Counted from the first letter of the stretch, positions 1,062 to 58,643 are shown. The stretch: DNA of 64,000 bases from Candidatus Micrarchaeota archaeon (GCA_038046765.1 JBBSVN010000011.1:1152-65151), one strand, 5' to 3'. Translations and numbers: made by a program. Notes: a model not told the origin generated them from the letters alone.

Positions 1062-1637
1062 ATGACAATTCATAAAACTAATCGAACTGGTCTAAGCTTA
1101 GTACCAAATAATTCTTCTAATCCAAGTCCGCAAAGTTCGGGGAAACCTATGGCTGATAAAAACAAACAAACGGTAAAAATGTCACGTGCAGAAATTATTG
1201 CAATTCTAAAACAACAAGGCAGAAACTGGAACGATGAAGTTGCTGATGTTTTAAAAATTCCTGAATTTGCTTATGTATTAGATGAGTCGGAAACAAGTCG
1301 TTTATTGTTAATTTCAAGCGAAAATAATCTGGATATTGTGCGTACAGTAGCGAACGCAGTTACAATATCCGGAGGATCATTTCCAAAAGAAATCCCAAAA
1401 TATGGAATTGCATTAACTGGTGTTGGAAGTTATACTTACCTTGTTTTTATTGATAGAGAAAAAAGAGTTGTTGATGTAGAAGTTTTATTTAGTTTACATG
1501 CAAAACAAAGGGATCAAGATTGGCAGGATATTGCACAAAAAGTTAAAGATGCAATTACCGAAGCTTCGAAAAATCAAAAAGGAGTTTTAGTAACCGGTGC
1601 TACTTCAAGAAGAATTGCATTTGCCCAAAAAGAATAA
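1062..1637 (+). CDS. Hypothetical protein (191 aa)
   Basis: ORF with no recognisable motif. Convergent with the giant gene; the two stop codons are 6 nt apart. Confidence 0.5.
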   Translation: MTIHKTNRTGLSLVPNNSSNPSPQSSGKPMADKNKQTVKMSRAEIIAILKQQGRNWNDEVADVLKIPEFAYVLDESETSRLLLISSENNLDIVRTVANAVTISGGSFPKEIPKYGIALTGVGSYTYLVFIDREKRVVDVEVLFSLHAKQRDQDWQDIAQKVKDAITEASKNQKGVLVTGATSRRIAFAQKE

Positions 1638-1643
1638 AATTAC

Positions 1644-4600
1644 CTAATCTTCTTCGATTAAGTGTTGAGGAACTTTAGATAATATATCATTCCAAAGCTG
1701 TCCCCCGCTTCCTTTAGAAATTCGTCCAAGGAACTGATAAAATGCTTCTACACCCTCTCTTGCTACGAATTTTGTTCTACCATCAACATAATCGACAGAT
1801 GTTCTAGGATTTCCATTAATCGGCATTCCAAAATTAGCATTATTTATCTCAACTTCGTCTCGGTAAACTTTTTCACCTGCTTCTATGAGGGCTTTTTGCT
1901 CTGGGGTAAGTATTTTTTCAAGACCAATACTTACTGGTTTACCATCATGTTCTTGGAATTTTCGTGCCATCCCAGATGCAAAACTTCCTGTTTTACCAAT
2001 CGAATCATACCACTTTTTAGCCCCTTCTTTTATGTGTTCTGTTGCAAATGCCATTACTTGAGGTATCGAAGAGTTTGTTGTTTTAGCGATTCGATCGAAT
2101 ATTCTATGCATGTCTCCCTTCGCGGACCATTTTACCATGGCGCTAAAATCATGACTGCCATCATACTGCTTAACTGACTGGAAATGGCCTGCTGAATCCA
2201 GGTCAATTCTTCCAAATTTAAAAATCATTTTTCTTCCTGTTGCATCAGTAAATGTTGTGCGCCCTTTACTTTCTAAAAATGTAGCGTCGCTTGGTGAAAC
2301 CTCTAACATCATCGCCCAAAGGTTAAGTTCGTGTCCATCCCATAATCCGCTTGCAAGGCTGCCTGTTTGTGCATATCCCATTTCCTGCCAGAATAAATCA
2401 GGATGCTCTTCCAATATATATTTTAAAATCGGCTCGTCATGCATACTAGTAATATTACTTGCAGATGCAGTCTTAACCTGTATTTTCTTTCCCTCTAGAA
2501 CCAATGATCCTTCAAAATCCTGCATACTCTCCATTAACCCGTATTTTGTTTTTCTTCCTTCGCTAGTAAATTCCAGAGCTTTGCCGCCTGCCTTTGTGAT
2601 GACTTTTGGTGCTGGTATCCCGGCAGTTTTAGCTCCAATAGAACCAAGCTCATCAGCAGTAAGGTCCATTGTTTTTAAGAAAAGAGATTTGATTTTTCCT
2701 TCTGGAGTAATTATCTTAATTTCGTAAGCACCAGTAAGCCCCCCTAGACTAGCAATAGATTCGATTCTACTCTGAGCTGGAATTCCTTCTATTGCACCAG
2801 TTGAGACGTGGTCAGAAAGTTTTCCATTTGTACTAAAATCTAAAATTTTTGAGGTTGATTCTTCACCAGCTATAATTTTAAATCCAAGTTTTCCTTCAAT
2901 AAGTTTATGGAAATTTTCCGTTATTCCTTTGCCCATATAATCTTCGTAAAATTCAACAAATTCGATTTCGCTTATTCCGACCTTTGCTGCAATTTTTTCA
3001 AGTTTTAAATATGTTTGTCCATCGGCAGCGAGTAATGATGCGGTCATAATTTCCTGTCTTTTGTCTAATTCAGCAAGTATTGCTGTTCTTTCTTCCACAG
3101 GTAATTCCAGAAATTTTCTTAGCAGTGCAACCTTTTCTACGTTGTTACTAGCTTTTTTATAATCATCTGCAAATTCATAGGATAATCTTTCATGCGCAGT
3201 TAGTTCGATTACTTTACCTTCTGGAGCAGCAGTATCTCGTGTGGCATCGTCAAATTTACTTTTTTGCCTTATCTTTTCACTAGAAACTACACCAACATCT
3301 TCATACATACCAATTAGTTCTGACCTTGAAACTCCATGTTCATCTGCAAGTTTAATCATTTTTCCAAAGTTAGAAATATAAGTTTCAAGTTTTCTAGCCC
3401 CAATTTCGTTTCCAGATTTTCTTAATTTTGCAACTTCAGTTTGTTGTTGTTCTGGTGAAAGTTCTAGGAATTTTTTAAATTCCCTTAACCTTACTTCTGG
3501 TGCAAATATACCTACAATTAGATTTACTTTAACTTCTTCAACTACGTGTAATACGGGAGCTTTAGTTGGTTCTTCTATATTCCTTTTAGGCGTATCCACA
3601 ATCGTCTGCTCTGGTTCTGGTATTCCACGTATTTTTCTTAGAAACGGATTTAATCCTTCAGTTACTTTTAGACCTTCGAGTCCAGCCATTTTTGGAGCGC
3701 CAATTACTTCTATTATTTTGCCGCTTTCTCTAATGTCTAATAAAATGGTAAATGGTTTGCCCTTTTCAATAATTTGGCTTGATAAAGATTGTGGATTTCC
3801 AAAAGCAAGTATCTTACCTGTTTGAGGGTCATAATATCCATTAACTGCAAGTCTGTCTGATCTTGCATTTCCATCCATTGATTCGGATTTAATCATATCT
3901 CTAAAACTTCCAGTAACTTCCTGTTTTCTAAGGTCAAATATAATTAGTGCATTTTCAAATGCGATCGTATCTGGTGGTCTAGTAAAATGTTCCCTCATCC
4001 TTTTTTGTAGTTCTTCTGGTAATGACCCAACTCTTTTTTCAAATTCTGAACGAGTAAGTAAAATTGGCTTAGCTTTATCTTTAACTGAAGCAGATAAACG
4101 CGGTTCATTGCTTGTTGCTGCATCGGGTCTTAATGTTGGTTCAATTACAGTAGGTTCAAAAACCGCCCCAAGAGTTGCGCTTCCGCGTTCATCACCCGCA
4201 ACAGCTTTTAGTTTTCCTCCGACTTTTTTATAAACTCCTTTTGCGCCTTCGCTTGTTGCAGTTTTAAATGCAGCTCGAGCTGGATGTCCAAGTGGTTGCA
4301 GAGTTGAAAATGCACCAATTATCGCGTCAAATCCGTGACCAGCCTCATACGCTTCAACCGCGTCTTTTAATCCAACAACAGTGCCAGCTGCTAAACTCCC
4401 TACGCCAACAACGCCTTCCAGAGTCTTTGCTCCTTTTATCCCTAAATTTGCTAGTTTTCCAATTCCAGGAGTTGCTAAACCTGCACCAAAAAGAGCAACA
4501 TCAATCGCGCGTACTTTTCCAGTAGTATCATATTGCGCAGCTAAACCTTCTGCACTAGTAGCTAGTCCATAAACAGGAAACGCCATCGAAAGAACGGTGG

Positions 4601-5717
4601 TTGTAGCAGACTTTAAACTCCGGTAAGCTTCGGACGCTTTAATTTCTCTAGCTAAACGAATATCTATTGCTTCGCCATTTGTTTTCCAAAGCGATGCATT
4701 ATCTTCACGTTCAACATTTGTTTTTGCGCTTCTAGCAGTTTGGAAATTTTCAAAAGTACTAAGTGTTGCCTGATACAATACTGCGCGATCCTTTTCGCTA
4801 TCAACAAGAAGATGCGTGTCCTTTACTCTTTCAAAAGTTTTATTTGCGCTTTCAATTTGATTTGCCAAACTAGTTCCAATTTCTTTTCCTTTTGCAAGTG
4901 CGATTAAATACTGTGCCTGAATTTTACAAACTTGTTCTAGATTGATTCCGCCCATTCCATTTTCCAGGATTTTTTCATCTCGCGAAAAGCCATAAGCTAA
5001 ATTTGTAAATGCCTTTGTTATTCTCTGCTCTAAATCTTTTGAAGCATCTGGTACGTAATCAAGAGCGTGGTCTGCAACCATCCGAAAATCAATTGAAACT
5101 CCTTTGAAATAATCTTCTCTTTTCCTTCGTTCAACACTAGATAAAATTCCAGACCAGCGCTCACTTCCCTGAACTTGCAATGCAATATTTTCTACCTCCG
5201 TGCTTTTTGAAATTGCAGCTATTGCAACGCTCCAAGCTGTTGTGTGAAGGACATATTCATCTTTGGTTTTGTCAAAACCCTTATCTCGTACCTGTGCAAC
5301 CTGTCCCTGCGCGTCTTTTATTATTTTATCAAGAAGGGCAATTGATGCAGGATTACTTGTAGCAGATTTCATTTTGGTTGCTTGGTCAATGTAGCCTTGG
5401 GCATTTTGAGTAACGCGAGTAATTGCTGCCGAGTTTATTCCTGCCTGCATTTCTACTCTTAACGCTGCTGTCTTTTCTATAGCTGATTTTGTAATCTCAT
5501 CTGCTTTTTGTATATTTCCTTTTTTATAAAAAGCTAATGCGTTTTCCAATTGACTGCGTAACTCTTGCACTGGTTTAGAAACGCCATTTAATTCACCTAA
5601 TGCTTTAGATACGAATGCGATTTTTTGTTTTAATACCTGTTCATTTGCATTTGCAAGTTTGAAGCTAGGCTTATTAACAGTTAAATCTTCGCCTTCTCCG
5701 ACTTGCCTTAAAACCAA
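1644..5717 (-). CDS. Giant (1357 aa) multi-domain protein of unknown function
   Basis: Single uninterrupted ORF with an apparent TTG start. Order: helical Q/A/K-rich N-terminus, Gly/Ala-rich hydrophobic segment (aa ~373-476), two copies of a ~60-aa helical module (aa ~745-806 and ~865-926), C-terminal globular region with LWDGHELN and GRIDLDSAGH motifs. No N-terminal signal peptide. Confidence 0.8.
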   Translation of the reverse strand: MVLRQVGEGEDLTVNKPSFKLANANEQVLKQKIAFVSKALGELNGVSKPVQELRSQLENALAFYKKGNIQKADEITKSAIEKTAALRVEMQAGINSAAITRVTQNAQGYIDQATKMKSATSNPASIALLDKIIKDAQGQVAQVRDKGFDKTKDEYVLHTTAWSVAIAAISKSTEVENIALQVQGSERWSGILSSVERRKREDYFKGVSIDFRMVADHALDYVPDASKDLEQRITKAFTNLAYGFSRDEKILENGMGGINLEQVCKIQAQYLIALAKGKEIGTSLANQIESANKTFERVKDTHLLVDSEKDRAVLYQATLSTFENFQTARSAKTNVEREDNASLWKTNGEAIDIRLAREIKASEAYRSLKSATTTVLSMAFPVYGLATSAEGLAAQYDTTGKVRAIDVALFGAGLATPGIGKLANLGIKGAKTLEGVVGVGSLAAGTVVGLKDAVEAYEAGHGFDAIIGAFSTLQPLGHPARAAFKTATSEGAKGVYKKVGGKLKAVAGDERGSATLGAVFEPTVIEPTLRPDAATSNEPRLSASVKDKAKPILLTRSEFEKRVGSLPEELQKRMREHFTRPPDTIAFENALIIFDLRKQEVTGSFRDMIKSESMDGNARSDRLAVNGYYDPQTGKILAFGNPQSLSSQIIEKGKPFTILLDIRESGKIIEVIGAPKMAGLEGLKVTEGLNPFLRKIRGIPEPEQTIVDTPKRNIEEPTKAPVLHVVEEVKVNLIVGIFAPEVRLREFKKFLELSPEQQQTEVAKLRKSGNEIGARKLETYISNFGKMIKLADEHGVSRSELIGMYEDVGVVSSEKIRQKSKFDDATRDTAAPEGKVIELTAHERLSYEFADDYKKASNNVEKVALLRKFLELPVEERTAILAELDKRQEIMTASLLAADGQTYLKLEKIAAKVGISEIEFVEFYEDYMGKGITENFHKLIEGKLGFKIIAGEESTSKILDFSTNGKLSDHVSTGAIEGIPAQSRIESIASLGGLTGAYEIKIITPEGKIKSLFLKTMDLTADELGSIGAKTAGIPAPKVITKAGGKALEFTSEGRKTKYGLMESMQDFEGSLVLEGKKIQVKTASASNITSMHDEPILKYILEEHPDLFWQEMGYAQTGSLASGLWDGHELNLWAMMLEVSPSDATFLESKGRTTFTDATGRKMIFKFGRIDLDSAGHFQSVKQYDGSHDFSAMVKWSAKGDMHRIFDRIAKTTNSSIPQVMAFATEHIKEGAKKWYDSIGKTGSFASGMARKFQEHDGKPVSIGLEKILTPEQKALIEAGEKVYRDEVEINNANFGMPINGNPRTSVDYVDGRTKFVAREGVEAFYQFLGRISKGSGGQLWNDILSKVPQHLIEED

Positions 5718-5841
5718 AATAAATCCCTGTTCTTATCTAATAAGGAAATAATTAAGTGTATTTGATATTTAAAAAGAATCTCTGAACTATAATTTGTTAT
5801 AATAATTAGATTTAAAAGGTTAATCTAATAAATACTAGTAC

Positions 5842-7422
5842 ATGACAAAAACCAAAACTTTGAAATACACCGCTTCGCATCCAGTTATTGCTACAATTGC
5901 ATTAGCTTCAACTTTATTTTTTAACAAACCATTATATGCCGAACAATCAAATAATCCTGATGCAGTAAAAACTCAAAAACAACAAGAAATTAAACCATTC
6001 GTAGCAGTTATAAATTTAAAACCATTCTTAGAACAATGTAAACTTAAAGAATGTAAAAAAATTCTCAAAAAAGTCCCTCCAGATAAATTACTAGTGAATA
6101 TTCGATTTGAATATGATTTGGTTAAATCTGCAGTTCATTCTCCAGAAGGATTTTCAGATACTTTTTTCGATTTTCTAGTTTCAAGACTAACTCTTAACGA
6201 TTCTGAAGCAAAACTATTCGCACCAATCTATAATGCGCTTTCAAAATATGTTCTAACATATAATTTTCCAATAATAATTAATCAAATGAAAGAATATCTT
6301 AAAATGCATGAATCGGATATCGCTCCTGCGATAATTGGGTCTAAATCTGTAGTGTCTGGACCGACTGTCCCTGTATCTGCTTCTAAAGAACCAGCAAAAT
6401 CCCTAACTGGTGTGGCTACTAAAGCACCTGTGACAATTCCACCTGTAACTCCACAATTAGTTAATCTAAGAAGAAACGAATTATTTTCATCACGCTTAGC
6501 TGATGGTCGATTTGTTTTAACTAACGAATTTGGAAAAAATGATTGGAAACTTCCTTCTGAACAAGAAGTTGGTTCTACAACTAACCAGACTTCTGTATTA
6601 GTGTGGGCTCTAAACGGTAGAAATCTGCATTTTGGGCTAAACGGATCCTTTGGTTTCTATTCCACAAGTCAGAGTATTAATTCGAATAATTGCAATGGAA
6701 CTTCTGGTTGCATGTCAAGCACAATCGATCCATTTTATGTTTTTGGTGGTGGGCCAGCTCTTAAATTAATTTTAGAACCTGGTTCAGTAAAAATAAAAAC
6801 TTTTGTAAACGTAAATGCGCTTTATCGAACTTCCTTTGGCGTATTAAGTACTGATGAAAATGCAGCATTTACCAGAATGACTCAGGCAATATTTCCTTCA
6901 CGCCTGTTGATTGATTTGGATATTGTTCAAACCATTGGTGCAGGTCAATTAGATATTGGTTTACTAGCTAGAGTTTCCACACAATATTCTTCACTTGTAA
7001 AAGATGCTTCTTTAACTTTGGATATTTCTAAGTGGCATGCTTCAATAGACTATCACGTATCTAATCCACCAGCCGCAAGCGCAAGCGTGGTCGGAACAAT
7101 TGATTTTGAAAATTCAGTCATTCGATCTTTACGAGCTGTAGTTGATTATCGATTTTTAGGACCCCTATCAGTTGGTTTGGGTTTCGATCGGGCATGGTTT
7201 GCAACAAACCCCGTTAATTATAATGGTGCCTTAGCAAGATTACTTGTCCAAATCGGTCCGGTTACTTTGGGTACCGATGGAATATATTATCCAGCAACAA
7301 AGGATTTTGCGATATTTTCTACATTAAATTTTAGCTTTGGGCGTTACTTTGTTGGTAGTAAAGTCTCCAGAAATCCGTTTAATAATTATGGCGTAACAAA
7401 TAATTCACATTTAGTATATTAA
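5842..7422 (+). CDS. Secreted protein with beta-rich, porin-like C-terminal half
   Basis: N-terminal signal-like segment (HPVIATIALASTLFFNKPLYA|EQ). Pro/Val/Thr linker. The C-terminal ~300 aa show alternating hydrophobic/polar strands (LHFGLNGSFGFYS, ALKLILEPGSVKIKTFVNVNALY, RAVVDYRFLGPLSVGLGF). Ends in ...HLVY. Confidence 0.6.
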   Translation: MTKTKTLKYTASHPVIATIALASTLFFNKPLYAEQSNNPDAVKTQKQQEIKPFVAVINLKPFLEQCKLKECKKILKKVPPDKLLVNIRFEYDLVKSAVHSPEGFSDTFFDFLVSRLTLNDSEAKLFAPIYNALSKYVLTYNFPIIINQMKEYLKMHESDIAPAIIGSKSVVSGPTVPVSASKEPAKSLTGVATKAPVTIPPVTPQLVNLRRNELFSSRLADGRFVLTNEFGKNDWKLPSEQEVGSTTNQTSVLVWALNGRNLHFGLNGSFGFYSTSQSINSNNCNGTSGCMSSTIDPFYVFGGGPALKLILEPGSVKIKTFVNVNALYRTSFGVLSTDENAAFTRMTQAIFPSRLLIDLDIVQTIGAGQLDIGLLARVSTQYSSLVKDASLTLDISKWHASIDYHVSNPPAASASVVGTIDFENSVIRSLRAVVDYRFLGPLSVGLGFDRAWFATNPVNYNGALARLLVQIGPVTLGTDGIYYPATKDFAIFSTLNFSFGRYFVGSKVSRNPFNNYGVTNNSHLVY

Positions 7423-7435
7423 AAAGGTATTAGTT

Positions 7436-9199
7436 ATGACAACACTTCGATCATCAAAAGAACAAATTGGAAATCCAGTAATTAGCGCCGCAAAAAGAAC
7501 TTTGAGGGAAGCTGTTCTTGCCTTAGGATTTAGTTCTGCTATTCTTGGTTCTAGTATATTATCTGGTTGTGGCGCAGAAGTTCCAAAAATAACTAGCAGC
7601 AAAACAACATCTAAAAATCCAGATGCAAGTGTTGATGCTTCATTGCCAAAAGATTCACAAGTTTTAGAAGACGCAACAGTTACAAACGATTCAGCAGTTG
7701 ATGCTTTTGATGATGATGGAAATTCATCTGATGCGCAATCATTGGATGCGATGGGAGATGGAACAATCGATGCACAATTAGATGCAATAGATGCACGCGT
7801 TCCAAATGATGCAAGAATGGACGCACGAGCTGATGGCGGAGTTGATGCTTCACGCGATGGTAATATCGATTCACAAATTGATTCAACAGTTGATGGAAGT
7901 AATGATTCAATGACAGATGCAATCGATGCCCCAATTCCAGATGCGAACGATGGTGGTTTAGACGCACGCGACGGTGCAATAATTTCACAAGATCGTGGAA
8001 TTGATTCTAATAATTTTACTGAAGCAGGAATTGATACAGGAATGGATGCACCAATAGATGCAATGACAATTACTCCTGATGCACCAAGTGATGTTTCTGT
8101 ACAACCAATTGACTCAGCACCAGACATGATGGTTACGCCTCCAGATCGGTCAAATCCAAATGATATTTTATCCGTAGATGCTCCAAGAGATATTTTACCT
8201 CCTGATACTTTATCCCCCGATGCAATGGCTGATGCAAGAACTTGTAACAACGTGGTTGCTTCATGGTCAGGTTTTTTACAAGTAACATTTTCAAATCCAA
8301 TTCTAGCAGGGATTACAAAGGAATTAGTGCTTCCTAATTACAATATATATCCTGGTTTCTCGTCAAACTTAAATGAATTAAGAGTTGAAGAAGGTATTTG
8401 CTACGAAGGAACTGGAAATTTTAATTCACATTGGGCTACAACATATAATTCTACGGAAACATTAGTAATGCAAAAAATGCGAACTACTGGAAATAATGTG
8501 TCGGTATATTTTGCAAACCCTGGCGCGATAGATACATCAAATCTGCAAGGAACGTTTGTATTTTTTGATGCATTCCAAAATTCCGTTGCATGGGCTCCAA
8601 TTATTGGAAGAACTGGTTGTACAGTAAGCAATGGGCAAGCAACTTGCCTAATTGGTCAGCAATCATATCTGCAAAATTATTCTGTGCAATCAAGTAATGC
8701 TTCAGGAATTTTAGTTGAATCAATTATTTCTGGAGCGGGTCAGGGAATAGTTGGTTTAGCAAGCGTTGAAGATAATGATATTTATAGCACTGGCGATATT
8801 GTAAATGTTTTTGCAGTAAATAATGCCCCCAATAGCGGTATGATAAATGTTGCAGACCAAACTGGACCTGGAGGTACACAATATAGAACAAATCTAGTTG
8901 GATTACCAAGACCAAGAATGAACTTTAATATATTTGGGGCAGTAAAAACCGATGCAGATACTGCCTATGGAAGGGCGATTGTAAGTGGAATTCCTACAAT
9001 TGTTTCGATAACGAATACTCCAAATCTGCCATCATTTATACCTAGCGGATCAGAAACAATGGTTCCAGTTATAGGGGACACTGGTTTAGGAACTAGTACT
9101 TATACTGGTGGAATTTGGGGCAGGTCAGTTGACGTGCAATCAGTAACTGCTACTGCAACAATAACTTATGTTCCAAGACCAGTTACTTGTAGAGATTAG
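7436..9199 (+). CDS. Putative lipoprotein with a long Asp/Ala low-complexity region
   Basis: Lipobox-like ILSGC after a hydrophobic N-terminus. About 200 aa of D-A-x-x-D / P-D repeats (GATGCA-rich DNA). Then a ~320-aa beta-rich domain. Starts 14 nt after the upstream stop, so probably co-transcribed. Confidence 0.6.
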   Translation: MTTLRSSKEQIGNPVISAAKRTLREAVLALGFSSAILGSSILSGCGAEVPKITSSKTTSKNPDASVDASLPKDSQVLEDATVTNDSAVDAFDDDGNSSDAQSLDAMGDGTIDAQLDAIDARVPNDARMDARADGGVDASRDGNIDSQIDSTVDGSNDSMTDAIDAPIPDANDGGLDARDGAIISQDRGIDSNNFTEAGIDTGMDAPIDAMTITPDAPSDVSVQPIDSAPDMMVTPPDRSNPNDILSVDAPRDILPPDTLSPDAMADARTCNNVVASWSGFLQVTFSNPILAGITKELVLPNYNIYPGFSSNLNELRVEEGICYEGTGNFNSHWATTYNSTETLVMQKMRTTGNNVSVYFANPGAIDTSNLQGTFVFFDAFQNSVAWAPIIGRTGCTVSNGQATCLIGQQSYLQNYSVQSSNASGILVESIISGAGQGIVGLASVEDNDIYSTGDIVNVFAVNNAPNSGMINVADQTGPGGTQYRTNLVGLPRPRMNFNIFGAVKTDADTAYGRAIVSGIPTIVSITNTPNLPSFIPSGSETMVPVIGDTGLGTSTYTGGIWGRSVDVQSVTATATITYVPRPVTCRD

Positions 9200-11096: not shown

Positions 11097-12401
11097 TTAT
11101 TTTTCCAAAATCCATTTCCAGACTGGCATTATTTTTATCTTTTTATAATCAGCCCATTTTCCTAGTGGCACATCTTTTGTATACTGGTCTTTGGTTAGAA
11201 TGATGCCATTTTCGATGTTAAGTTCATTCATAGCGTTATTTAATCCCTTAAATTCTCTATCAATATTTTTCTCATCAAGTTTATAACAAACTTGTATTGC
11301 TAGTTCAGCTTTGCCTTTTTTAGAAACTATAAAATCGCACTCCTCTTCATTTTTTGATTTATAATAATTTATGCCTTTATTTTCAATTTCATTTTGTCTT
11401 CTAAATAACTCTAAGAAAACAACATTTTCCAGTATTCTGCCCTGATCTTCTGATTCTTTAGATAGAAAATGAATATATCCTGTATCAAACAAGTATACTT
11501 TTGACTTTGATAATTCGCTTTTTTTGAATGATTTTGAACTTTGTTTAACATACGCAATCATGAAAACATCTTCAAGAGATTTTAAAATCAAATACAAATC
11601 CTCAAGGCTATAAGGTATTTTATTAGATTTAAGATAATTTTCAAATGCAGAAACAGAAAATGTATTGCCAAAGAGATTTAGCATATACTTAATCGTAATC
11701 TCAACTAATTTTATGTTTTTTATTTTGAGTCTTTCAACAATGTCCTTGTAAAGAACTGAATCAAAATAGTTGTTTATAATTTTGTTTTTTAGTTCAAGTA
11801 CATCCGTAGTCGCAATTTCAGGAAAGCCCCCGTATTTAGTATATTCTTCAAAATGCTTTTTAATTTCAAAGACTTGGTCGGTTAATTCAAAATTTTTTCC
11901 AAGAGTTATACCTTTATATTTTAAGTATTCAGAAAATGAAAAAGGTAGAAGCAGATACGGCAATGCCTTTCCTCTAAGAGACGTTGCAATTTCCCTGCTT
12001 AAAAGTTTGGAGTTAGATCCAGTAACCGTAACTTTATATCCTTCGTTTAAAAGAGAAACGATAAAATTTTCCCATCCTGAAACAACCTGTATTTCATCAA
12101 AGAAAAAGATTAATTTTTCTTTTGAAAAGAGCTCTTTAGACAACTCTAGTATTTTTATTAGATCTGCATTAGTTAGTTCAGTTAACAAATGATCTTCAAA
12201 ATTTACTAACACCCAGTCCTTATCTTTACTCTTGCTTATCAAATAGTATAAATAAAATGTTTTACCAGCTCGTCTTGGACCTATTATCACATTTGCTTTT
12301 TTAAGGTCAGTTTCATACACTTGCAGGTCTCGTACAAATATTTGCTGCGGCAATAACTCCCGATATTTGAGAATTACTTTTTTTATGTTATCAATGTCCA
12401 T
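11097..12401 (-). CDS. AAA+ ATPase with C-terminal nuclease-like domain (AAA_14 + DUF4143 / COG1373 type)
   Basis: Walker A IIGPRRAGKT and Walker B LIFFFDEIQ. C-terminal EECDFIVS...LAIQV resembles a PD-(D/E)xK-like core. Paralog at 57339-58547. Confidence 0.7.
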   Translation of the reverse strand: MDIDNIKKVILKYRELLPQQIFVRDLQVYETDLKKANVIIGPRRAGKTFYLYYLISKSKDKDWVLVNFEDHLLTELTNADLIKILELSKELFSKEKLIFFFDEIQVVSGWENFIVSLLNEGYKVTVTGSNSKLLSREIATSLRGKALPYLLLPFSFSEYLKYKGITLGKNFELTDQVFEIKKHFEEYTKYGGFPEIATTDVLELKNKIINNYFDSVLYKDIVERLKIKNIKLVEITIKYMLNLFGNTFSVSAFENYLKSNKIPYSLEDLYLILKSLEDVFMIAYVKQSSKSFKKSELSKSKVYLFDTGYIHFLSKESEDQGRILENVVFLELFRRQNEIENKGINYYKSKNEEECDFIVSKKGKAELAIQVCYKLDEKNIDREFKGLNNAMNELNIENGIILTKDQYTKDVPLGKWADYKKIKIMPVWKWILEK

Positions 12402-12907: not shown

Positions 12908-14371
12908 GTGTTGGTTCATATGGTTGCAGGATTATTAGAAGCTTATTATCGGGATAATACATTGGTAAAGCAGCAGCTTGATTCATACAATAAATTTATC
13001 GAGTTCGGAATCCAGGATGTTATAACTCGGATAGAAAAAATTAAAACAAATGTTGAAGGATTTGAACTTAAGCTTGGAAAAGTCCGAATTGAACAACCAC
13101 GATATTATGAAGTAAAAGGAGGGTATAAACAAATTCTTCCAGTTGAATCCAGATTAAGAAATATTACTTATGCTGCACCCGTTTTTCTAGAAATAATTCC
13201 TATTTTTAATGGAGTTGAAAGACCAACTTATAGCGATGTTTTTATTGGTGAAGTACCTGTAATGGTGAAATCAAAACTTTGTTATTTATCTTCGATGGGC
13301 AAAGAACATTTAATTGAAAATGGTGAAGACCCAGATGATCCAGGCGGATACTTTATTGTAAACGGTAGTGAACGGGTTCTTGTTAGTATCGAAGATCTAG
13401 TTCCAAACAAACTCATGGTAACAAAAGAGAAAAACGGCATGGTTGCTAAAATCTTTTCGACATTCCAAGGATTTAGAGCTAGGTGCGTAGTAGAACGAAG
13501 TAATGATGGTTTATTTACTGTTGAGTTTCCATCTGCTCCATCATCTGTTTCATTAATACAAATTTTACGTGTACTTGGATTAGAAACAAATGCTGAAATT
13601 TCAAAAGCATTTTCGCACTCACGGTTGATCCAAAACGATGTCATACTTAACCTTGAAGTTGAAGAAAGTAAAAATAAGGAAGATGCGACTGAACTTCTAA
13701 GTAAGAGACTTTCTCCTGGTCAGCCATTAGAATTTAGGTTAAATCGAATGGAAAGTTTACTTGATAATTATTTATTACCTCACGTTGGTGTAAAGAAAGA
13801 ACTAAGAATGGAAAAAGTAAAATTCCTCATTCAAATGGCTGAAAGAGCTGTGCGTGTTTCATATAAACAAATTTCAGCTGATGACAAGGACCACTATGCA
13901 AATAAGAGGGTAAAACTAGCAGGGGAACTGATGGAAGAACTCTTTAGGTATGCATTCCAATTCCTGGTAAAAGATTTAGTTTATCAAGCTTCAAGAGCAG
14001 ATGCCAGAGGAAGGCGATTACAAGTTCATACTTTAGTTCGGCAAGATGCAATGGCGGATCGAATTAGATATGCTATGGCAACCGGTAATTGGATTGCTGG
14101 TCAAACAGGTATTTCACAACTTTTAGATCGGGTCAGTTATTTATCAACAATTTCACACTTAAGAAGAATCATTTCGCCACTATCTAAAAAGCATCCGCAC
14201 TTTAAGGCAAGAGATTTACATGGTACTCATGTTATGAGACTTTGTCCAAACGAAACTCCGGAAGGTCCAAGCTGTTCACTAGTTAAGAACTTAAGTGTCA
14301 TGTCTGAAGTTTCTATAGGAATTGACGATGAGCCATTGATGAAATTACTCAAGGCTTTTGATGTTAAATAA
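12908..14371 (+). CDS. rpoB2: RNA polymerase subunit B'' (Rpo2N, N-terminal half of split B)
   Basis: Family-level sequence (GGYFIVNGSERVLVS, ADDKDHYANKR, GPSCSLVKNL) and position upstream of B'. Start GTG 12908 or ATG 12920. Confidence 0.93.
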   Translation: MLVHMVAGLLEAYYRDNTLVKQQLDSYNKFIEFGIQDVITRIEKIKTNVEGFELKLGKVRIEQPRYYEVKGGYKQILPVESRLRNITYAAPVFLEIIPIFNGVERPTYSDVFIGEVPVMVKSKLCYLSSMGKEHLIENGEDPDDPGGYFIVNGSERVLVSIEDLVPNKLMVTKEKNGMVAKIFSTFQGFRARCVVERSNDGLFTVEFPSAPSSVSLIQILRVLGLETNAEISKAFSHSRLIQNDVILNLEVEESKNKEDATELLSKRLSPGQPLEFRLNRMESLLDNYLLPHVGVKKELRMEKVKFLIQMAERAVRVSYKQISADDKDHYANKRVKLAGELMEELFRYAFQFLVKDLVYQASRADARGRRLQVHTLVRQDAMADRIRYAMATGNWIAGQTGISQLLDRVSYLSTISHLRRIISPLSKKHPHFKARDLHGTHVMRLCPNETPEGPSCSLVKNLSVMSEVSIGIDDEPLMKLLKAFDVK

Positions 14372-14420
14372 TTTAGTTTAATTTATCTGCAAGAAAGGTT
14401 AGTTTATACGGTGTTATACT

Positions 14421-16256
14421 ATGGTAAAAAAGAAGAAATCTCCTGATCAAAAAACAACAATTTATCTAAATGGTAGGTTTGTCGGCCAACATAGCGATGG
14501 TGTTAATCTTGCCAAAAGGCTTCGTGAAAAACGAAGATCTAATGAATTAAATCCCCAAGTAAATGTCTATTATAATTCCAAGCTTGATGAACTTCATATC
14601 ATTACTGATAAGGGAAGAGTAAGGAGACCTTTAATCGTAGTTGAAGGTGGAAAATCGAGGCTCGTTCCAGAAATTTTATCAAAATTAAGAAACGGCGATC
14701 TAAACTGGCAACATTTGATTAAATTAGGTGTAATTGAATACTTGGACGCACAAGAAGAAGAGAATTCGTATATTGCACTTAAGGAGGAAGAAATAACTGA
14801 AGAACATACTCATTTTGAACCTGATTCAGCAGCAATGTTTGGTGTAGTTGCAGGTGTACTGCCATATACGGAATATAATTCATCTCCGCGTATTACAATG
14901 GCTTGTGCTATGGCTAAGCAGAGCCTTGGTATGTATGCTATGAATTTTAATCTTCGGTATGATACTCGTGCTTATATTATGTACTACCCTCAGCAACCAA
15001 TGATTCAAACAAGACTTTATAAAGCTCTTGATTTAAAAAACAAAGTTGCAGGACAAAACTGTGTTGTTGCCCTTACAAGTTATTTAGGATACAACATGGC
15101 TGATGCAATTATTGTAAATAAAGCTACAATAGAAAGAGGGATGTCAAGGACTGCTATGTTTAAGACATACGAAACTGAAGAGAGAACTTACCCGGGTGGA
15201 CAGAAGGATAAAATCGAAGCTCCAAATGCAGATGTAGCTGGTTATCGGGGAGAAGAAGCATATAAACATTTAGATGAAGATGGAATTATTTTACCTGGTA
15301 GTTATGTTCATGGAAAAGAAGTATTAGTTGGTAAAACCTCACCACCAAGATTCTTAGAAGAAATATCTGTTTTTGGTGCTGTTGAGGAGAAAAAGCGAGA
15401 AAGTTCGCTTGCATTAAAACCTGGTGAAGTTGGTAGAGTTGACTCGGTTTTAATAACTGAAGGTCCAAGCGGAAATCGTTTGGTGAAGGTTCGAATAAAA
15501 GCAATAAAAGTTCCTGAAATCGGAGATAAACTTGCTTCAAGACACGGACAAAAAGGTGTCATTGGATTACTAGCTAGTCAAGAAGATATGCCATTTACAA
15601 AAGATGGGATTACGCCTGATTTAATCGTTAATCCCCACGCAATACCCAGTAGAATGACTGTAGGTCACTTACTTGAAACCTTAGGTGGCAAAGCTGGAGC
15701 GCTTGGCGGTATGCTTATGGACGGAACTGCATTTAGCGGTAATGTCGAATCAGAATATAAAGAAATATTAAAGAAAAACGGCTTTGACGAATTCGGAGAA
15801 GAAATACTTTATGATGGAGTTAGTGGGAGACAAATCAAAGTAAAAATCTTTATTGGAGTTGTTTACTATCAAAGACTGCATCACTTGGTATCTAACAAGA
15901 TGCACGTTCGAGGTAGAGGTCCAGTTCAATTATTAACTCACCAGCCAACTGAAGGTAGGGCAAGAGAAGGTGGACTTCGTTTCGGGGAAATGGAACGAGA
16001 CTGCCTTATTGGTTTTGGGGCGAGTATGCTCATTAAAGAACGTTTACTTGAAGAGAGTGACAAGACCGTACAGCTTGTTTGCAGTGAATGTGGAAGCGTT
16101 GCAACACATGATTATGCCAGAAATAAAGACATCTGTCCAATCTGTGAAAACGAGGCAGTACAACCTGTTGAAATGAGTTATGCCTTTAAGTTACTCTTGG
16201 ATGAAATAAAATCCTTATACATATTCCCAAGGTTAGTTATGAAAGAAAAAGGATAA
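14421..16256 (+). CDS. rpoB1: RNA polymerase subunit B' (Rpo2C)
   Basis: GDKLASRHGQKGV, NPHAIPSRMTVGHL, GGLRFGEMERDCLI and a C-terminal Zn ribbon CSECG...CPIC. GGTG Shine-Dalgarno sequence upstream. Confidence 0.95.
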   Translation: MVKKKKSPDQKTTIYLNGRFVGQHSDGVNLAKRLREKRRSNELNPQVNVYYNSKLDELHIITDKGRVRRPLIVVEGGKSRLVPEILSKLRNGDLNWQHLIKLGVIEYLDAQEEENSYIALKEEEITEEHTHFEPDSAAMFGVVAGVLPYTEYNSSPRITMACAMAKQSLGMYAMNFNLRYDTRAYIMYYPQQPMIQTRLYKALDLKNKVAGQNCVVALTSYLGYNMADAIIVNKATIERGMSRTAMFKTYETEERTYPGGQKDKIEAPNADVAGYRGEEAYKHLDEDGIILPGSYVHGKEVLVGKTSPPRFLEEISVFGAVEEKKRESSLALKPGEVGRVDSVLITEGPSGNRLVKVRIKAIKVPEIGDKLASRHGQKGVIGLLASQEDMPFTKDGITPDLIVNPHAIPSRMTVGHLLETLGGKAGALGGMLMDGTAFSGNVESEYKEILKKNGFDEFGEEILYDGVSGRQIKVKIFIGVVYYQRLHHLVSNKMHVRGRGPVQLLTHQPTEGRAREGGLRFGEMERDCLIGFGASMLIKERLLEESDKTVQLVCSECGSVATHDYARNKDICPICENEAVQPVEMSYAFKLLLDEIKSLYIFPRLVMKEKG

Positions 16257-16307
16257 TTAAACGTGCCACTTTTTTAAAGTGAGCCTGTCGATAACGAGTT
16301 GATCACG

Positions 16308-18974
16308 ATGATGGAAATTCAAAAAGTTTTGGATAAAATTAAGTTTTCTTTATTCTCGCCAGAAATGGTAAGAAAAATGACTGCTGCAAAAATTGTTGTA
16401 CCTGATACTTATGATGATGATGGTTACCCGATTGATGGCGGTCTAGTTGATACTCGTTTGGGTATCGTAGACCCAGGTCTTAGATGTAAAACCTGTGGCG
16501 GAAGAGTAAAAGAATGTCCTGGTCACTTTGGTCATATTGAATTAATCAGACCAGTTATTCATGTTGAATTTGCAAAACATATCTTGTATGCACTAAAACT
16601 TACATGTTCAAGTTGTCATAAATTAATAGGAAAAGAGAGTATATCTGAAGTTGAAAAAGAAATTGAAGAAACCGAAATTGCAACAACTGCAGTTCCACCT
16701 GTCATTGCAGAAACTCCAATTGCCGATCCATTAATTTCATCTTCTGAAATTGCTGTTGTACCTACAGTTGCTGTTGTATCTGAAAAAGAAATTGCAGCTG
16801 TTGTAAAGCAGGATAGCGAAAAGAAAGAAAAGAAGAAAAGAAAAACTGTCAAAAAATGTTCACGATGCGACAGTGTTTTGCCAGATATAAAATTCTTAAA
16901 ACCAACTACGTTCTATAAGGACAAGGAAGTAATGCTCCCAACTGAAATAAAAGATTGGTTAAGTGCAATTTCTGATGAAGATTTAAGGCAACTTGGTTTT
17001 GACCCAAATTTGTCTAGGATTGAATGGGGAATTATAACTGTATTGCCTGTTCCGCCAGTTAATGTAAGACCAAGTATTACTCTTGAAACTGGTGAACGAA
17101 GCGAAGATGATTTAACTCACAAACTTGTTGATATTATTAGGATAAATCAGAAGTTAGAAGCTAATATTAATGCAGGAGCACCGCAGCTTATTATCGAGGA
17201 TTTATGGGAATTATTACAATACCATATTACTACCTACTTCAATAATGAAACTGCAAATATCCCTCCAGCGAGACACCGAAGTGGAAGACCATTAAAAACA
17301 CTTGCCCAGCGTCTTAAGGGTAAGGAAGGTCGTTTCCGATATAATTTATCTGGTAAGCGTGTTAACTTTTCAGCCCGTACTGTAATTTCACCAGACCCAA
17401 GATTAACTATTAATCAGGTCGGAGTTCCAGTTGATATTGCAAAAGAATTAACAATTCCAATTACAGTTACTGACTGGAACATTGAAGAATGTAAAAAGTA
17501 CATTCTCTCTCCAGGTTATCCAAAAGTAACTTATATTCTTAGGCCAGATGGAAAGAGGGTAAAAGTAGGGGACGAAGACACTCTTAAAAAAGAACTTGCC
17601 GAAAATCTTAAAATCGGTCAGATTATTGAAAGACAACTTGTAGATGGCGATATTGTACTATTTAATCGTCAGCCAAGTCTTCATAGAATATCTATGATGG
17701 CTCATAATGTAAAAATAATGTCTGGAAGAACATTCCGTCTTAATCCAATCGTAGTCCCGCCATACAACGCAGATTTTGACGGAGACGAAATGAATCTTCA
17801 CGTTATACAAACCGAAGAAGCACAGGCAGAGGCAAAATATTTAATGAAAGTTGAAGGACAAATTCTTTCTCCAAGGCATGGTCACGCTATAATTAAGCCA
17901 CAAGAAGATCATGTTTCAGGTCTATACTTTTTAACTAAAGAAGGTTCGGAATTTAGTGTTGAAGAAGCATCTAACCTTCTTTATGCAATTGGAATTTATG
18001 ATTTACCTGAACCAGATAAAAAAGGGAAATACTCTGGAAAATTGCTTTTCTCGCAGATACTTCCAAAAGATATCTCTGCAAAAATACAATCCAAACTTGG
18101 TGAAGAAATTCTTATCAAAAATGGTATGCTATTAAAAGGAGCAATTGAAAGTAAGGCAATTGAAAGTGAAGTCTTAGAAAAAATATTTGTTATGCACGGT
18201 CCAGAATATACTAGTGAATTTTTAACAAAAGCTACACGACTTGCGCTACAAAGCATTACTCAACATGGACTTAGTGTTTCAATTAGAGATTATACTATCT
18301 CAAAGAAAGGTGACGAGAGTATCAAAAAAGTACTTGACAAGATGAATCGTGAAATTGATAACTTAATTATGCAGTATCGGAACAAGACATTAGAACGGTC
18401 TCCTGGTGTTAGCATAAAAGAAACTTTGGAATCCTCGATTGTTCAAATTACATCAAGAATAAGAGATGAAGTTGGTAAAGTCGTTGAAGACGATTTAACA
18501 ATTGCCAATTCATCAATTATCATGGCAAAAATTGGGGCTAGGGGTAGTTTACTTAATGCTATTCAGATGAGTGCACTTGTTGCTCAGCAAACTGTTAGAA
18601 ATAAGCGAATAAAAAGAGGTTATCGCGGAAGATTTTTACCATACTTTAAAGCAGGAGTATTAACTGCAAAAGAACGTGGATTTGTATTTTCTTCATTTAG
18701 GAAAGGTATGACTCCTTACGAATTTATTGCACACGCAGTTGGTGGTAGAGAAGCCCTTGTTAACACAGCAATTAGAACTGCACGTTCTGGTTACATGCAA
18801 AGAAGACTGATTAACGCACTTCAAGACTTAGTTGTATACGAAGATATGACTGTTCGAAATGCTGACCTAAGTATTGTTCAGTTCATTTATGGAGGCGATG
18901 CATGCGATCCAATGTTATCAAGTAAATCTGAGGTTGTTGATACTGCAAAGCAAGATGATGTTGATACTGCATAA
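16308..18974 (+). CDS. rpoA1: RNA polymerase subunit A' (Rpo1N)
   Basis: CKTCGG...[22 protein letters not shown] and the [10 protein letters not shown] catalytic motif. ATG 16308 preferred over the tracked TTG 16299. Contains a low-complexity insertion between the second pair of Cys doublets. Confidence 0.95.
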
Positions 18975-18988
18975 ATTTATTGGTGATT

Positions 18989-20047
18989 ATGATGACTATT
19001 CAAACTAAGAAAAATGCTATTGCGCCTTTTGAGGCCGTTGGGGTAATTAGTGCACAAAGTATTGGTGAACCTGGTACACAGATGACGATGCGTACTTTCC
19101 ACTATGCTGGTGTTGCTGAACACGTACCAACTGGTTTACCACGGTTAATTGAAATTGTCGATGCTAAAAAAGAACCTAAAAAGGCAATTATTGACATCTA
19201 CTTAAAAAGTTCACATGCAAAAAGCCAGAGCGAAGCAGAAAGCGTAGCAAAAGAACTTGGTGCAGTTTTCGTAAGCGAAGTCGCGCGAGTAGAAGATGAT
19301 CTTTTAAATAGAACCATCATGCTAACTTATAGCGAAAAAGATGGGAAGTCCTTGGGTGTAAGCTTTGCTGCTCTAAGAAAATCTATTGAAAAAATTTCAA
19401 CAGACATAAAAGTAAACGAGCCAAAAATTCTTATAAAAGTTGCTCCTGAAAAGAAAAAAGATGGAGTTGAAAAAGAAATCAATGCAAAATATGTAAGAAA
19501 ACTTGCAAATAAAATAAAATTTTATCTTGTTAAGGGAGTTGAAGGTATTCTTAAACCTGTTGTTATTCGATCTGATAAAGAATATTTCATACGTGCAGCA
19601 GGAAGCAATATTCTAGGTGCAGTAACGCACAGTGCAGTTGATGCTAAAAGAATCTATACAAATAATATTAAGGCAATAGAAAAACTCTTTGGCATTGAAG
19701 CAGCTAGAAATGCAATCATTAAGGAAATTCAGGATGTTATGGATATGCAGAAACTTTACGTTGATATTAGACATATTATGCTTATTGCAGATGCAATGAC
19801 TTATGCTGGTGAAATAAAATCTATTGGAAGACACGGTTTATCTGGTGAAAAAGTCGGTGTCCTAGGAAGGGCAGCATTCGAAGAAACTGTAAAGCATTTA
19901 ATAAATGCAAGTGTCTTTGCTCAAGATGATAAATTAATTGGTGTAACTGAAAACATCATCGTTGGTCAGACTGTTCCAGTTGGTACTGGAAGAATTAAAC
20001 TTATGATGAAAACTAAAAAAGCAAAAGAATCAAAAGAAAAAGAATAA
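18989..20047 (+). CDS. rpoA2: RNA polymerase subunit A'' (Rpo1C)
   Basis: [22 protein letters not shown] (trigger-loop region) and ...[13 protein letters not shown] 18989 follows a GGTGAT Shine-Dalgarno sequence. Confidence 0.95.
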
Positions 20048-51711: not shown

Positions 51712-51841
51712 GTTAGTCCCTCCGATTTCTTTGATTGTGTCTTGTATTATACTAATTGTTATATATTTAATAAGTTATTAAATAGTTCCTATTTTTTCGC
51801 AGTACCTTTATCCTTTTAAATATTGTCTTATTTTGATATAC

Positions 51842-54800: not shown

Positions 54801-55573
54801 TTAATTCATGTACTCCTCTAGTGATCCAAGATTGTAATATTTATTCTAGTTCCTTTGGTTATATTGGTCAAAATCAACTTGTCAAAATATTGGATAAACA
54901 AAACAAAGCCTGCCAGGATTATTCTGTAAAACTTGTTTCACCTGATGGAAATTTTACAAATAAAACTACTAATGAATATGGTATTGCAGACTTCCTATTA
55001 GACCAAAAAGGTATTTATAAAATCTATCTAATTGATTCAAAAGGTTACATAATTCGTGCTAGTGCCTTGGAATCTATTGAAAAGAAAGCAAGTTTAGACG
55101 AATGCGACATTACAACAGATAGCGATGCCGTTATTGGTAGTTATCATAAAATCCACTTGTCTGCAGGTGATAAACCTTGTGTTGGAGTCCTATTATCAAT
55201 AACTACTCCTAAAAAAGATATTGATACACAGAAAACTGACGAAAAAGGACAGGCAGTTATTCCATTAAAAAGTACTGGTGAATACTTGGTTTCCTTGGTA
55301 TCTTCAGATGGTAAGGTTATAAAGTCTAAAAATATCAATGTTGTATCAGTTACTACAGAAACTAAAAAAGCCAAAGAAACCAAATCAATCCTGCCTAATA
55401 TTGAATCAATACTAGTTCCATCAAAACAAACGTCCTTATCTACTATATCTAGTTCTAGTATCAACTATGGTCAAATTGTATTTGTAATCGCTACATTTTT
55501 GTTTGTTGTATTTGGCTTAAAAAGGGTTTTAGATCAAAAACCAAAAAATAAAAAATATAAATTTAACAATTAA
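51842..55573 (+). CDS. Large surface protein: parallel beta-helix (PbH1/NosD-like) repeats, Ser-run, Cys-rich modules, Ig-like domains, C-terminal TM anchor
   Basis: Signal-like N-terminus. Long array of ~22-aa repeats (NNT..N.S..GI.L..S.NN.I) dense in N-x-S/T sequons. S11 run near 54437-54469. CGDGACE..C..DC and CGNGVIDKGETCDG modules at 54601-54813. C-terminal IVFVIATFLFVVFGL plus a basic tail. ATG 51842 lies ~25 nt after a TATA-like box. Confidence 0.8.
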   Translation: MNFHSPKFYVFFLFILLISTSFSLDFFVNKSVCTYGGVNVGINSNQTISQVLIDAATRGLPGDNIFICNESGMVYNESVLVNFSVNLFGTNLINPPNITNPGSDLFSVFNITVPNVNFTNLSINTSTSNGISIISTYGTNINNTNITSFNGIGVNISFAENVTLGAIYVNGTTSYAIYVNNSNSTYIKNSKINNITLAGITLEKSNNSWVENNTMRNISNSAAINVSGLTKNNTFANNSISNVSYGIYLGATAINSTIVNNTLSNGSYYAIAVYGGGEINITNNSIYDFNASNLGIGLYAVANSYKILFANNNVFNSSLYGIQIDQTTASIIENNTVVNSTNDGIRVSTETGGNNLLKNNTVHRFGNNGILISTSDNNLTNNWINGTSDSIGDGIVISGVNRNILLNNTITNISRRAIWFDGANRSAIINNTIYSADPGLYLNNDANNNNITNNTIYNTTYGAYLDTLSDVNNITNNLVRDNQIGIFLNSVFGRSGNVFIINNTLNNNTIFGINLTSSLNITLFNNVLSNSTIGLSVGVNSNNNNITNNTVYNSSQGFLFFNNNNNTVLNNTAANNTLLGFNFTSVFNSSIQNNTAINLTYGLVLSNSGNNSINRNTLYNLTRGISLQVSENNSITNNTVSNSTEYGYYLLSSSNNTISNNTAKNLSIYGFVIENSKEINLSYNNATNNSRAQYFLINSNATFTSNNYASNGSANSLDINLSNSTLSTRSVSALNNLTTEYLSITFEQATNASFKTIIRGDTGITINADEACDSGQCNIVTTNAYVVNISDVVSEPVISHLGIFVEASRIAGIDTSTLYMAKFSSFWTLSSPATLSADTLITSNNPITSHGYYAPSRYTPNPTRDSSSSSSSSSSSHDVTTEEPAEETHIEQVNQEIPPPVETKNDSSIPPVVLNITPQNFCGDGACEYFRGETITTCRKDCGYLCGNGVIDKGETCDGSDLASQTCKTQGYGGGTLYCSGCTSFSFNSCTPLVIQDCNIYSSSFGYIGQNQLVKILDKQNKACQDYSVKLVSPDGNFTNKTTNEYGIADFLLDQKGIYKIYLIDSKGYIIRASALESIEKKASLDECDITTDSDAVIGSYHKIHLSAGDKPCVGVLLSITTPKKDIDTQKTDEKGQAVIPLKSTGEYLVSLVSSDGKVIKSKNINVVSVTTETKKAKETKSILPNIESILVPSKQTSLSTISSSSINYGQIVFVIATFLFVVFGLKRVLDQKPKNKKYKFNN

Positions 55574-57275: not shown

Positions 57276-57343
57276 TTTCTAACCTATAGTTCACAAATTC
57301 CTTAAAGTTTCTAACCTATAATAGAGAAACTATTTGAATTAGT
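57276..57343. repeat. Direct repeat R1 (68 nt) flanking the ATPase cassette
   Basis: The 35-nt core tttctaacctatagttcacaaattccttaaagttt (57276-57310) is identical to 58576-58610. The next ~33 nt are similar. It ends at the ATPase stop codon. Confidence 0.85.
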
Positions 57344-58575: not shown

Positions 58576-58643
58576 TTTCTAACCTATAGTTCACAAATTC
58601 CTTAAAGTTTGTAACATTTAGTAGAGAAATTATTCAGATCAGT
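58576..58643. repeat. Direct repeat R2 (68 nt)
   Basis: See R1. It ends at the stop codon of the FlaI-like ATPase gene. Confidence 0.85.

Follow-up and report, generated by a model that had tools for sequence, protein, structure and literature searches.

A Micrarchaeota-specific family of giant modular proteins with a predicted kinase-like C-terminal fold and a convergent partner gene

The 64,000-nucleotide stretch of a Candidatus Micrarchaeota archaeon analysed here (GCA_038046765.1, JBBSVN010000011.1:1152-65151; hereafter the window) encodes a protein of 1357 amino acids (aa), which we refer to as the giant. By sequence comparison, the giant is not an orphan but a member of a modular protein family specific to Micrarchaeota. 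Its last domain, module C, is modelled with the fold of a kinase, and its gene converges on a small gene, the partner, whose product is a candidate for the cognate antidote or regulator of module C. We lean, cautiously, toward reading the giant as a polymorphic effector or toxin, specific to Micrarchaeota, whose warhead has a kinase fold and whose partner is antidote-like; its export, its target and its contact with a host we infer. The case draws on the fold and catalytic residues of module C, the co-occurrence of module C with the partner, the exchange of the two between close strains and the shuffling of modules across the family.

A kinase-like fold at the C-terminus

An AlphaFold2 model of aa 960-1357, built from a 12-sequence alignment, is a confident one, with a predicted local distance difference test (pLDDT) score of 90.5 and a predicted template modelling (pTM) score of 0.90. 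An earlier sequence-only reading of this DNA had called the C-terminal part globular, and the model agrees. When it was compared by Foldseek with the PDB, the top 50 matches were all kinase-fold proteins, with probabilities up to 0.98; they include ATR, mTOR, PI3K (PI3K-delta among them), Vps34, DNA-PK, Rio1/2, sugar kinases and eukaryotic protein kinases. The same comparison with BFVD, which holds predicted structures of viral proteins, gave about 40 annotated kinases in the top 50, and probabilities across the two databases reach 0.98-1.00.

The model is bilobal, its N-lobe a beta-sheet with helix C and its C-lobe helical, and sets out the catalytic residues in canonical order, as the protein-kinase-like fold does. 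A Gly loop, GGLTGAY (aa 992-998, G992-Y998), lies between strands 1 and 2, and K1015, at the end of strand 3, is placed as the beta3 lysine. After the long helix of the C-lobe comes G-x-W-D1127-G-H1129-x-x-N1132, a predicted catalytic loop of the form D-x-H-x-x-N, and after the last strand G-R-I-D1172-x-D1174, in which D1172 occupies the position of the metal-binding Asp. Among the 12 sequences, which are 25-36% identical to the giant, D1127, N1132, D1172 and D1174 are invariant, and conservation of K1015 and H1129 is 90% or higher. The PI3K/PIKK group is marked by a His at the second position after its catalytic Asp, and PI3K and PI4K combine a DRHxxN-type loop with an IDFG-type metal-binding motif. 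The WDGHELN and RIDLD of the giant resemble that loop and that motif; neither the Arg nor the Phe-Gly is conserved. Because fold and residues agree yet no hidden Markov model (HMM) of a kinase family matches, we place module C, on the model, in the kinase-like fold class only and in no named family.

A partner that travels with module C

Gene context was compared across 13 independent loci. A homologue of the partner is found at nine of nine loci that have module C and at none of the four that lack it (Fisher P = 0.0014). These homologues (HMM E-values from 1e-14 to 1e-70) lie tail-to-tail with the giant gene at all nine loci, at spacings between a 9-bp overlap and a 32-bp gap. The partner is retained beside P0003, a homologue in which little or none of the family's Gly/Ala-rich N-terminal block can be detected, and beside P0039, where module C is partial and is joined by a HopA1 domain. 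A role as chaperone of the N-terminal block was considered for the partner and rejected: the partner is missing from all four loci without module C, and three of the four giants there still carry the block. At one locus (L010, 22415-23871, minus strand), three tandem partner paralogues lie behind the 6140-aa P0003, which has two full copies and one partial copy of module C; the counts match. The partner itself has no match in Pfam or among PDB sequences. A match to BlaI (E = 0.23) is insignificant and was not used; at most, it allows for a stretch resembling a helix-turn-helix (HTH).

Two of the loci, L009 and L014, come from close strains, and their comparison is instructive. Their DNA is 98.7-99.2% identical in both flanks and across the first ~783 codons of the giant gene; the two giants, P0015 and P0043, share 96% identity over aa 1-807 and show no relationship beyond. 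The rest of the giant gene and the convergent small gene after it are unrelated in sequence. One strain has a short leader element, R, and module C, followed by a homologue of the partner; in the other, module B and further sequence take that place, and the gene after them, of 180 aa, is unrelated. The giant's C-terminal half is thus replaced as one unit with the small gene that converges on it. Joint replacement of a C-terminal module and a small gene defines polymorphic toxin/immunity systems (PMC3482391).

In the reading we favour, the partner would bind module C and keep it inactive in the producing cell, as an immunity protein or antidote does. Delivery of the cargo would come from the N-terminal region, whose weakly hydrophobic block would help it to associate with a membrane or insert into it at contact with a host or competitor. 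Once inside a cell, module C would move phosphate from ATP onto a protein or lipid target, an action that may be directed at a host, a competitor or self. A purely cell-surface role is unlikely for module C because a kinase needs ATP.

A family of shuffled modules in one phylum

The chance of a stop-free run of 1357 codons at this DNA composition is about 3e-43, and the NCBI annotation of the same metagenome-assembled genome (MAG) has the identical 1357-aa product as hypothetical protein AABX38_06325 of Candidatus Micrarchaeota archaeon. Gene calls agree with the sequence-only reading that this is the largest open reading frame (ORF) of the window. That reading had also recognised no family for the giant, which is correct as far as sequence libraries go and no longer so for the C-terminal part, given the protein-kinase-like fold predicted for it. 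Searches of Pfam, NCBIfam, PHROGs, PADLOC and PDB sequences, with the whole protein and with five sub-segments, gave no significant match. All PHROG matches were insignificant (best E = 0.11), as was a PADLOC cyclase match (E = 0.006 at 14 bits) that was not used.

The relatives come from an exhaustive HMMER search with aa 158-1357 against 1.84 billion representative proteins. There are 64 of them, 55 at E <= 1e-10; a taxon name is attached to 17, and in every case it is Micrarchaeota, Micrarchaeia or Bilamarchaeaceae. A word-indexed homology search with the whole giant matched the giant alone, and one with the alignment of module C matched nothing. No match to module C was found by tblastn among 50,697 phage records and 72,556 plasmids, and alignment scans of genomes and metagenomes returned only duplicates, or copies from the same protein cluster, of loci in the examined set. 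We found no description of the family in the searchable literature on Micrarchaeota and DPANN archaea.

Local mapping shows that three regions of the giant (Table 1) match different sets of proteins at differing positions. Module C recurs in 45 homologues, as a rule close to the C-terminus and in some of them in two or three copies, and the family members with such multiple copies reach 7300 aa. A single MAG of these small-genome archaea holds at least two to three family giants. The "effector-like modular architecture" proposed earlier thus has substance: the parts delimited from the sequence are separately conserved units that are recombined in other Micrarchaeota proteins, and close strains exchange the C-terminal half. 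Other enzymes are also found in the family. P0039 (L006, 1277-5788) combines the N-terminal module A with a Pfam HopA1 domain (aa 809-970, E = 2.8e-20) and a partial module C (aa 1188-1350), and P0031 carries a Metallophos domain, that of calcineurin-like phosphoesterases. HopA1 homologues include a characterised phospho-Ser/Thr lyase, CaoY, and the pairing of lyase and kinase in P0039 recalls the enzymes of lanthipeptide dehydration (PMC9486802).

Two further loci bear on the layout of the family. In Candidatus Bilamarchaeum dharawalense (L015, 1-15003), two giant ORFs stand back to back, one of more than 2699 aa and then one of 3193 aa with module B and a Metallophos domain. Four convergent small genes follow, two of them paralogous and none of the partner family; they may be cognate genes for other modules. 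At L003 (7310-8526, plus strand), the partner gene is followed by a second copy of a small helical protein that precedes many of the giants, and by the start of another large ORF, a layout that suggests tandem cassettes.

The N-terminal region

Local phmmer alignments of the giant to its homologues begin at about aa 102. The stretch before that point might have been a fused copy of the small helical protein encoded upstream of giants at other loci, and a comparison of the two ruled this out. The first 372 residues contain 12% Ala, 9% Lys and 6% Gln. Module A (aa ~102-493), the N-terminal part that stays relatively constant across the family, matches near the N-termini of P0004, P0025, P0026, P0027, P0037 and P0039.

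Within module A lies the most widely shared element of the family, the block at aa 373-476. Composition (17.6% Ala, 16.7% Gly) and hydropathy (maximum 1.49 on the Kyte-Doolittle scale over 19 residues) confirm its earlier description as Gly/Ala-rich and weakly hydrophobic. Its likening to glycine-zipper or membrane-insertion segments fared less well: the zipper pattern GxxxGxxxG occurs twice, 2.1 occurrences being expected (P = 0.63), and the hydrophobicity is below the transmembrane level. Conserved in the alignment are the motifs P.YG, QY..TGKV, AG, GxGTVxG and DAI..AF..L.PLGH. An HMM of the block also matches P0022, P0015, P0043, P0008, P0038, P0023, P0009 and P0048, always N-terminal to other modules. 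When the block alignment was compared with Pfam, the matches to TcdA_TcdB_pore (E = 0.35, in two of nine block sequences), PT-TG (E = 0.21) and the V-ATPase proteolipid (E of at least 2.8) were insignificant and were not used.

Module B and the leader element

Module B is recognised by the motifs HF..P, ESxGGNAG and NGYYDPxTGxIxAFGN, the polar positions of which are invariant, and it is present in 18 other proteins, where its position varies. Its AlphaFold2 model has a pLDDT of 86 and a pTM of 0.75. The best match of this model in a Foldseek search of the PDB has E = 0.69, and searches of PDB sequences and Pfam gave none. The HopA1 domain of P0039, together with the lyase-kinase logic of lanthipeptide synthetases, suggested a lyase of the OspF/SpvC/HopA1 type; this candidate was rejected, there being a confident model, no lyase among its fold matches and no Pfam match. 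Module B is a domain of unknown function.

Between modules B and C the giant has two copies of element R, about 60 residues long. R1 and R2 are 33% identical over 61 ungapped residues, and their local alignment scores 75, whereas none of 2000 shuffles scored above 49 (z = 10), so that the internal duplication reported earlier is borne out by alignment and shuffle test alike. In at least 14 homologues, module C is preceded at a distance of ~50-110 aa by an R-like element. Because R sits upstream of module C in these relatives, we regard it as a leader of module C, of which the giant has an extra copy.

Table 1. Features of the giant gene, its neighbours and related loci (window coordinates unless a locus is named)
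Feature	Position	Strand	Description
Giant ORF	1644..5717	minus	TTG start, 1357 aa, stop codon 1644-1646
aa 1-101	5415..5717	minus	N-terminal stretch outside all homologue matches; no signal peptide
aa 102-372	4602..5414	minus	putatively helical part of module A
aa 373-476	4290..4601	minus	Gly/Ala-rich weakly hydrophobic block; most widely shared family element
Module B, aa 528-701	3615..4136	minus	mobile ~170-aa domain, no known fold match
R1, aa 746-806	3300..3482	minus	extra copy of ~60-aa leader element
R2, aa 866-927	2937..3122	minus	leader element in its usual place just upstream of module C
Module C, aa 974-1350	1668..2798	minus	predicted divergent protein-kinase-like domain with helical C-terminal extension
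Partner gene	1062..1637	plus	191 aa, basic (pI 9.2), soluble; convergent, 6 bp from the giant's stop codon
Divergent intergenic region	5718..5841		124 bp, AT-rich; presumed promoter of the giant gene
Beta-rich protein	5842-7422		divergent from the giant; signal-peptide-like N-terminus (read by eye)
Lipoprotein-like protein	7436-9199	plus	lipobox-like N-terminus (read by eye); DUF2341 (E = 1e-5); long D/A/S-rich low-complexity stretch
Upstream helical protein	L002 4075-4356; L003 2196-2588; L006 953-1270; L007 5710-5985
Upstream helical protein	L008 3664-3999; L009 3405-3671; L010 3673-4008; L014 2724-2990
Toxin-antitoxin/abortive-infection flanking genes	L002 1964-2604; L007 12255-12830; L008 16568-17793; L009 2854-3102

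The genomic surroundings

Directly upstream of the giant, eight of the 13 loci encode a conserved helical protein (~90-130 aa), which the window and L001 lack. Some of these proteins have a W-x-G/A turn (for example AWDGAK) that recalls the hairpins of the WXG100 type, a resemblance only. The loci of the family are often flanked by toxin-antitoxin (TA) or abortive infection (Abi) genes, namely RHH with PIN, PIN_5, AbiEi/AbiEii and ParE. Beside the locus of P0006, the gene for an MCM helicase (L001, 1081-4506, minus strand) bears an intein with a LAGLIDADG domain.

In the window, the housekeeping genes around the giant include DUF92, a nucleotidyl transferase and RNA polymerase. The rpoB gene is split into two ORFs (12908-14371 and 14421-16256), after which come rpoA' and rpoA'' (12908-20047 for the whole run, plus strand). 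No tRNA or other Rfam match was found in the 64 kb. An ORF of 279 aa, antisense to the low-complexity stretch of the lipoprotein-like gene (7411-8250, minus strand), is most likely an artefact of repetitive composition. The second-largest ORF of the window (51833-55573, plus strand, 1246 aa) is of the right-handed beta-helix or NosD type (Pfam Beta_helix E = 5.8e-49, NosD E = 1.4e-35) and is probably a surface protein; we see no connection between it and the giant. About 53 kb from the giant, an ORF of 765 aa (58639-60936, minus strand) has a weak match to T2SSE, the ATPases of type II/IV secretion (E = 3e-5, just under the Pfam cut-off). The window also has two AAA_14 ATPases, at 11097-12401 (minus strand, also with DUF4143) and at 57339-58547 (minus strand). 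ATPases of this type are common in variable regions.

Weighing the explanations

Several observations weigh against an effector or toxin with a kinase-fold warhead. The fold matches of module C are weak in absolute terms (E ~1e-3, template modelling (TM) scores of 0.25-0.36), no Pfam family matches aa 925-1357 at E <= 10 and the profile has no match among PDB sequences. The giant has no signal peptide and none of the recognised trafficking or secretion domains (Sec, two-partner secretion, PAAR and LXG among others) in Pfam or NCBIfam, and no secretion machinery adjoins its gene. A classical transmembrane anchor is not supported for the block, whose hydropathy is low and whose summed Hessa-type energy is +5.3 kcal/mol in the giant and +1.7 to +5.9 in homologues, too polar in both. 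The window is ordinary archaeal chromosome, with split rpoB, rpoA'/A'', SecY and EF-2. Immunity genes are normally co-directional and co-transcribed with the toxin gene, and the partner is convergent; being basic and possibly HTH-like, it could instead be a regulator or a substrate. The exchange of cassettes was observed in homologues and not at the locus of the window, and 13 loci make a small sample.

Some of these points favour a self-directed module of the TA or Abi type, in which the giant would stay in the Micrarchaeota cell with the partner as its antitoxin until phage or stress released it to phosphorylate the cell's own targets, much as HipA is held by HipB. A protein without an export signal, whose enzyme requires cytoplasmic ATP, fits this, as do the small, basic partner, with an HTH-like stretch that the insignificant match makes possible, and the AbiEi/AbiEii, ParE, PIN and RHH genes nearby; tight linkage of kinase and partner and swapping between strains are typical of defence genes too. 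Still, no PADLOC model matches the giant. A constant N-terminal region of 500-800 aa with a conserved amphipathic block, and sizes up to 7300 aa with several different enzyme modules in tandem, are foreign to known TA and Abi toxins and typical of delivered multi-effector toxins, and a sibling carries a module of the HopA1 type, a family that was originally reported as a type III effector secreted by bacteria (PMC9486802). Self-direction, the main rival, we think unlikely on balance, and we give about the same low probability to a bolder idea, that the family is the cargo of a new Sec-independent route by which episymbiotic Micrarchaeota pass enzymes into the cytoplasm of a host archaeon. Modules B and C would then be the cargo, and the N-terminal region with its amphipathic block the device that crosses the membrane; the helical protein encoded upstream at eight of the 13 loci would serve as an accessory factor, and self-protection would fall to the partner.

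The remaining explanations have less in their favour. The giant might be a membrane-associated regulatory kinase of ordinary signalling, its 191-aa neighbour being a substrate or transcriptional regulator, and the housekeeping surroundings, the conserved catalytic residues and the conserved pairing with one small basic protein would all suit that role. Housekeeping signalling genes, however, do not shuffle, multiply or swap as this family does: there are several divergent copies per small genome, modules are freely shuffled, the C-terminal half and the neighbouring gene are replaced between 99%-identical strains and no orthologue is found outside one phylum. We rate this explanation as improbable. 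The sequence-only reading had proposed a surface or host-contact trio (locus 1062-9199) of the giant, the secreted beta-rich protein and the lipoprotein. The divergent layout over a spacer that does measure 124 bp, the signal-peptide-like and lipobox-like N-termini of the neighbours and the DUF2341 of the second speak for it. However, no homologue of either neighbour turned up in the related loci compared, and the genes upstream of the giant differ in every one of them; what is conserved is the partner at the edge of that locus (1062-1637), which the reading had not discussed. Nor does a protein that lacks a signal peptide, as had been claimed and as the absence of a hydrophobic N-terminus in the hydropathy profile supports, and that ends in an ATP-dependent enzyme fold look like part of a surface complex. 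The missing synteny largely refutes the trio, and we hold it to be very improbable. Least credible of all is a remnant of a virus or mobile element, such as a tape-measure-like or injected phage protein with a membrane-inserting Gly-rich segment. Large size, the Gly/Ala-rich block and weak, insignificant PHROG matches (E >= 0.11) recall such proteins. No PHROG match reaches significance, though, module C has no match in the phage and plasmid collections searched, and no capsid, terminase, portal or integrase gene lies nearby in the window or the related loci.

Comparison with known systems

The giant's family behaves like the bacterial polymorphic toxins (CdiA-CT/CdiI, Rhs, and the LXG toxins of the type VII secretion system; Zhang et al. 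2012, PMC3482391), which also have a constant N-terminal part and variable C-terminal enzymatic modules, also swap the C-terminal module and the adjacent small gene together between close strains and also have tandem arrays of small genes, as at L010. The family differs from them in being archaeal, restricted to Micrarchaeota and equipped with a predicted kinase-fold warhead, and in the giant's lack of known trafficking domains and of a signal peptide; its small gene, moreover, is convergent. Small helical partners are a feature of LXG toxins, and the upstream helical protein recalls them, again by resemblance only. MARTX toxins and the clostridial TcdA and TcdB are very large polypeptides with effector modules behind a Gly-rich, weakly hydrophobic translocation region. 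Family members of up to 7300 aa with several modules are reminiscent of these toxins, but the giant has no cysteine-protease processing domain, no MARTX repeats and no receptor-binding repeats.

Toxins and effectors built on a protein-kinase-like fold include HipA, LegK and LepB of Legionella, OspG, NleH and HopBF1. The combination of a kinase with a small partner recalls HipA and HipB: HipA, like the model of module C, is close to PI3/4-kinases in fold, and a small protein encoded alongside neutralises it. Module C differs from HipA in having no sequence match to HipA_C, in a list of top 50 fold matches from which HipA is absent, and in its place at the end of a giant modular protein, with leader R and a helical C-terminal extension. 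Its best structural matches are atypical kinases of the PI3K/PI4K/PIKK and RIO groups, which it resembles in its D-x-H-x-x-N loop followed by an I-D-x-D/G motif. Module C has no match to the HMM of PI3K and PI4K (Pfam PF00454) or to any other, and it superimposes on its structural matches at the low TM scores given above. Unlike these kinases, the model has an extra helix between strands beta7 and beta8 and an N-lobe enlarged by a big beta insertion, and it has no FAT, FATC or helical accessory domains.

Among DPANN symbionts, the SPEARE giants of nanohaloarchaea have also been proposed to act in host interaction (Hamm et al. 2019; PMC10266531). They are built with a Sec signal peptide, repeats of the Ig-like or fibronectin-like kind and an ATPase domain resembling VirB4 (PMC10266531). 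The giant has none of these features and no sequence relationship to them.

What the family may mean

The logic of the system is a familiar one; what is new is its components, namely the constant region, module B and the families of the warhead and of the partner. A family restricted to one phylum takes up tens of kilobases in each small genome, and it bears the hallmarks of a conflict system, with shuffled modules, multiple copies and replacement of warhead and partner between strains. The warhead enzyme, with its predicted kinase fold and intact catalytic set, has an activity that can be tested, and the conserved N-terminal region may define a new mode of trafficking. Were the giant instead self-directed and TA-like, module C and the partner would add a new pair of kinase-fold toxin and antidote to the sparse catalogue of archaeal conflict systems. 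To our knowledge, effectors have yet to be described for Micrarchaeota or other DPANN archaea. If Sec-independent delivery were true, these would be the first DPANN effector proteins identified, and an entry to the manipulation of hosts by DPANN cells.

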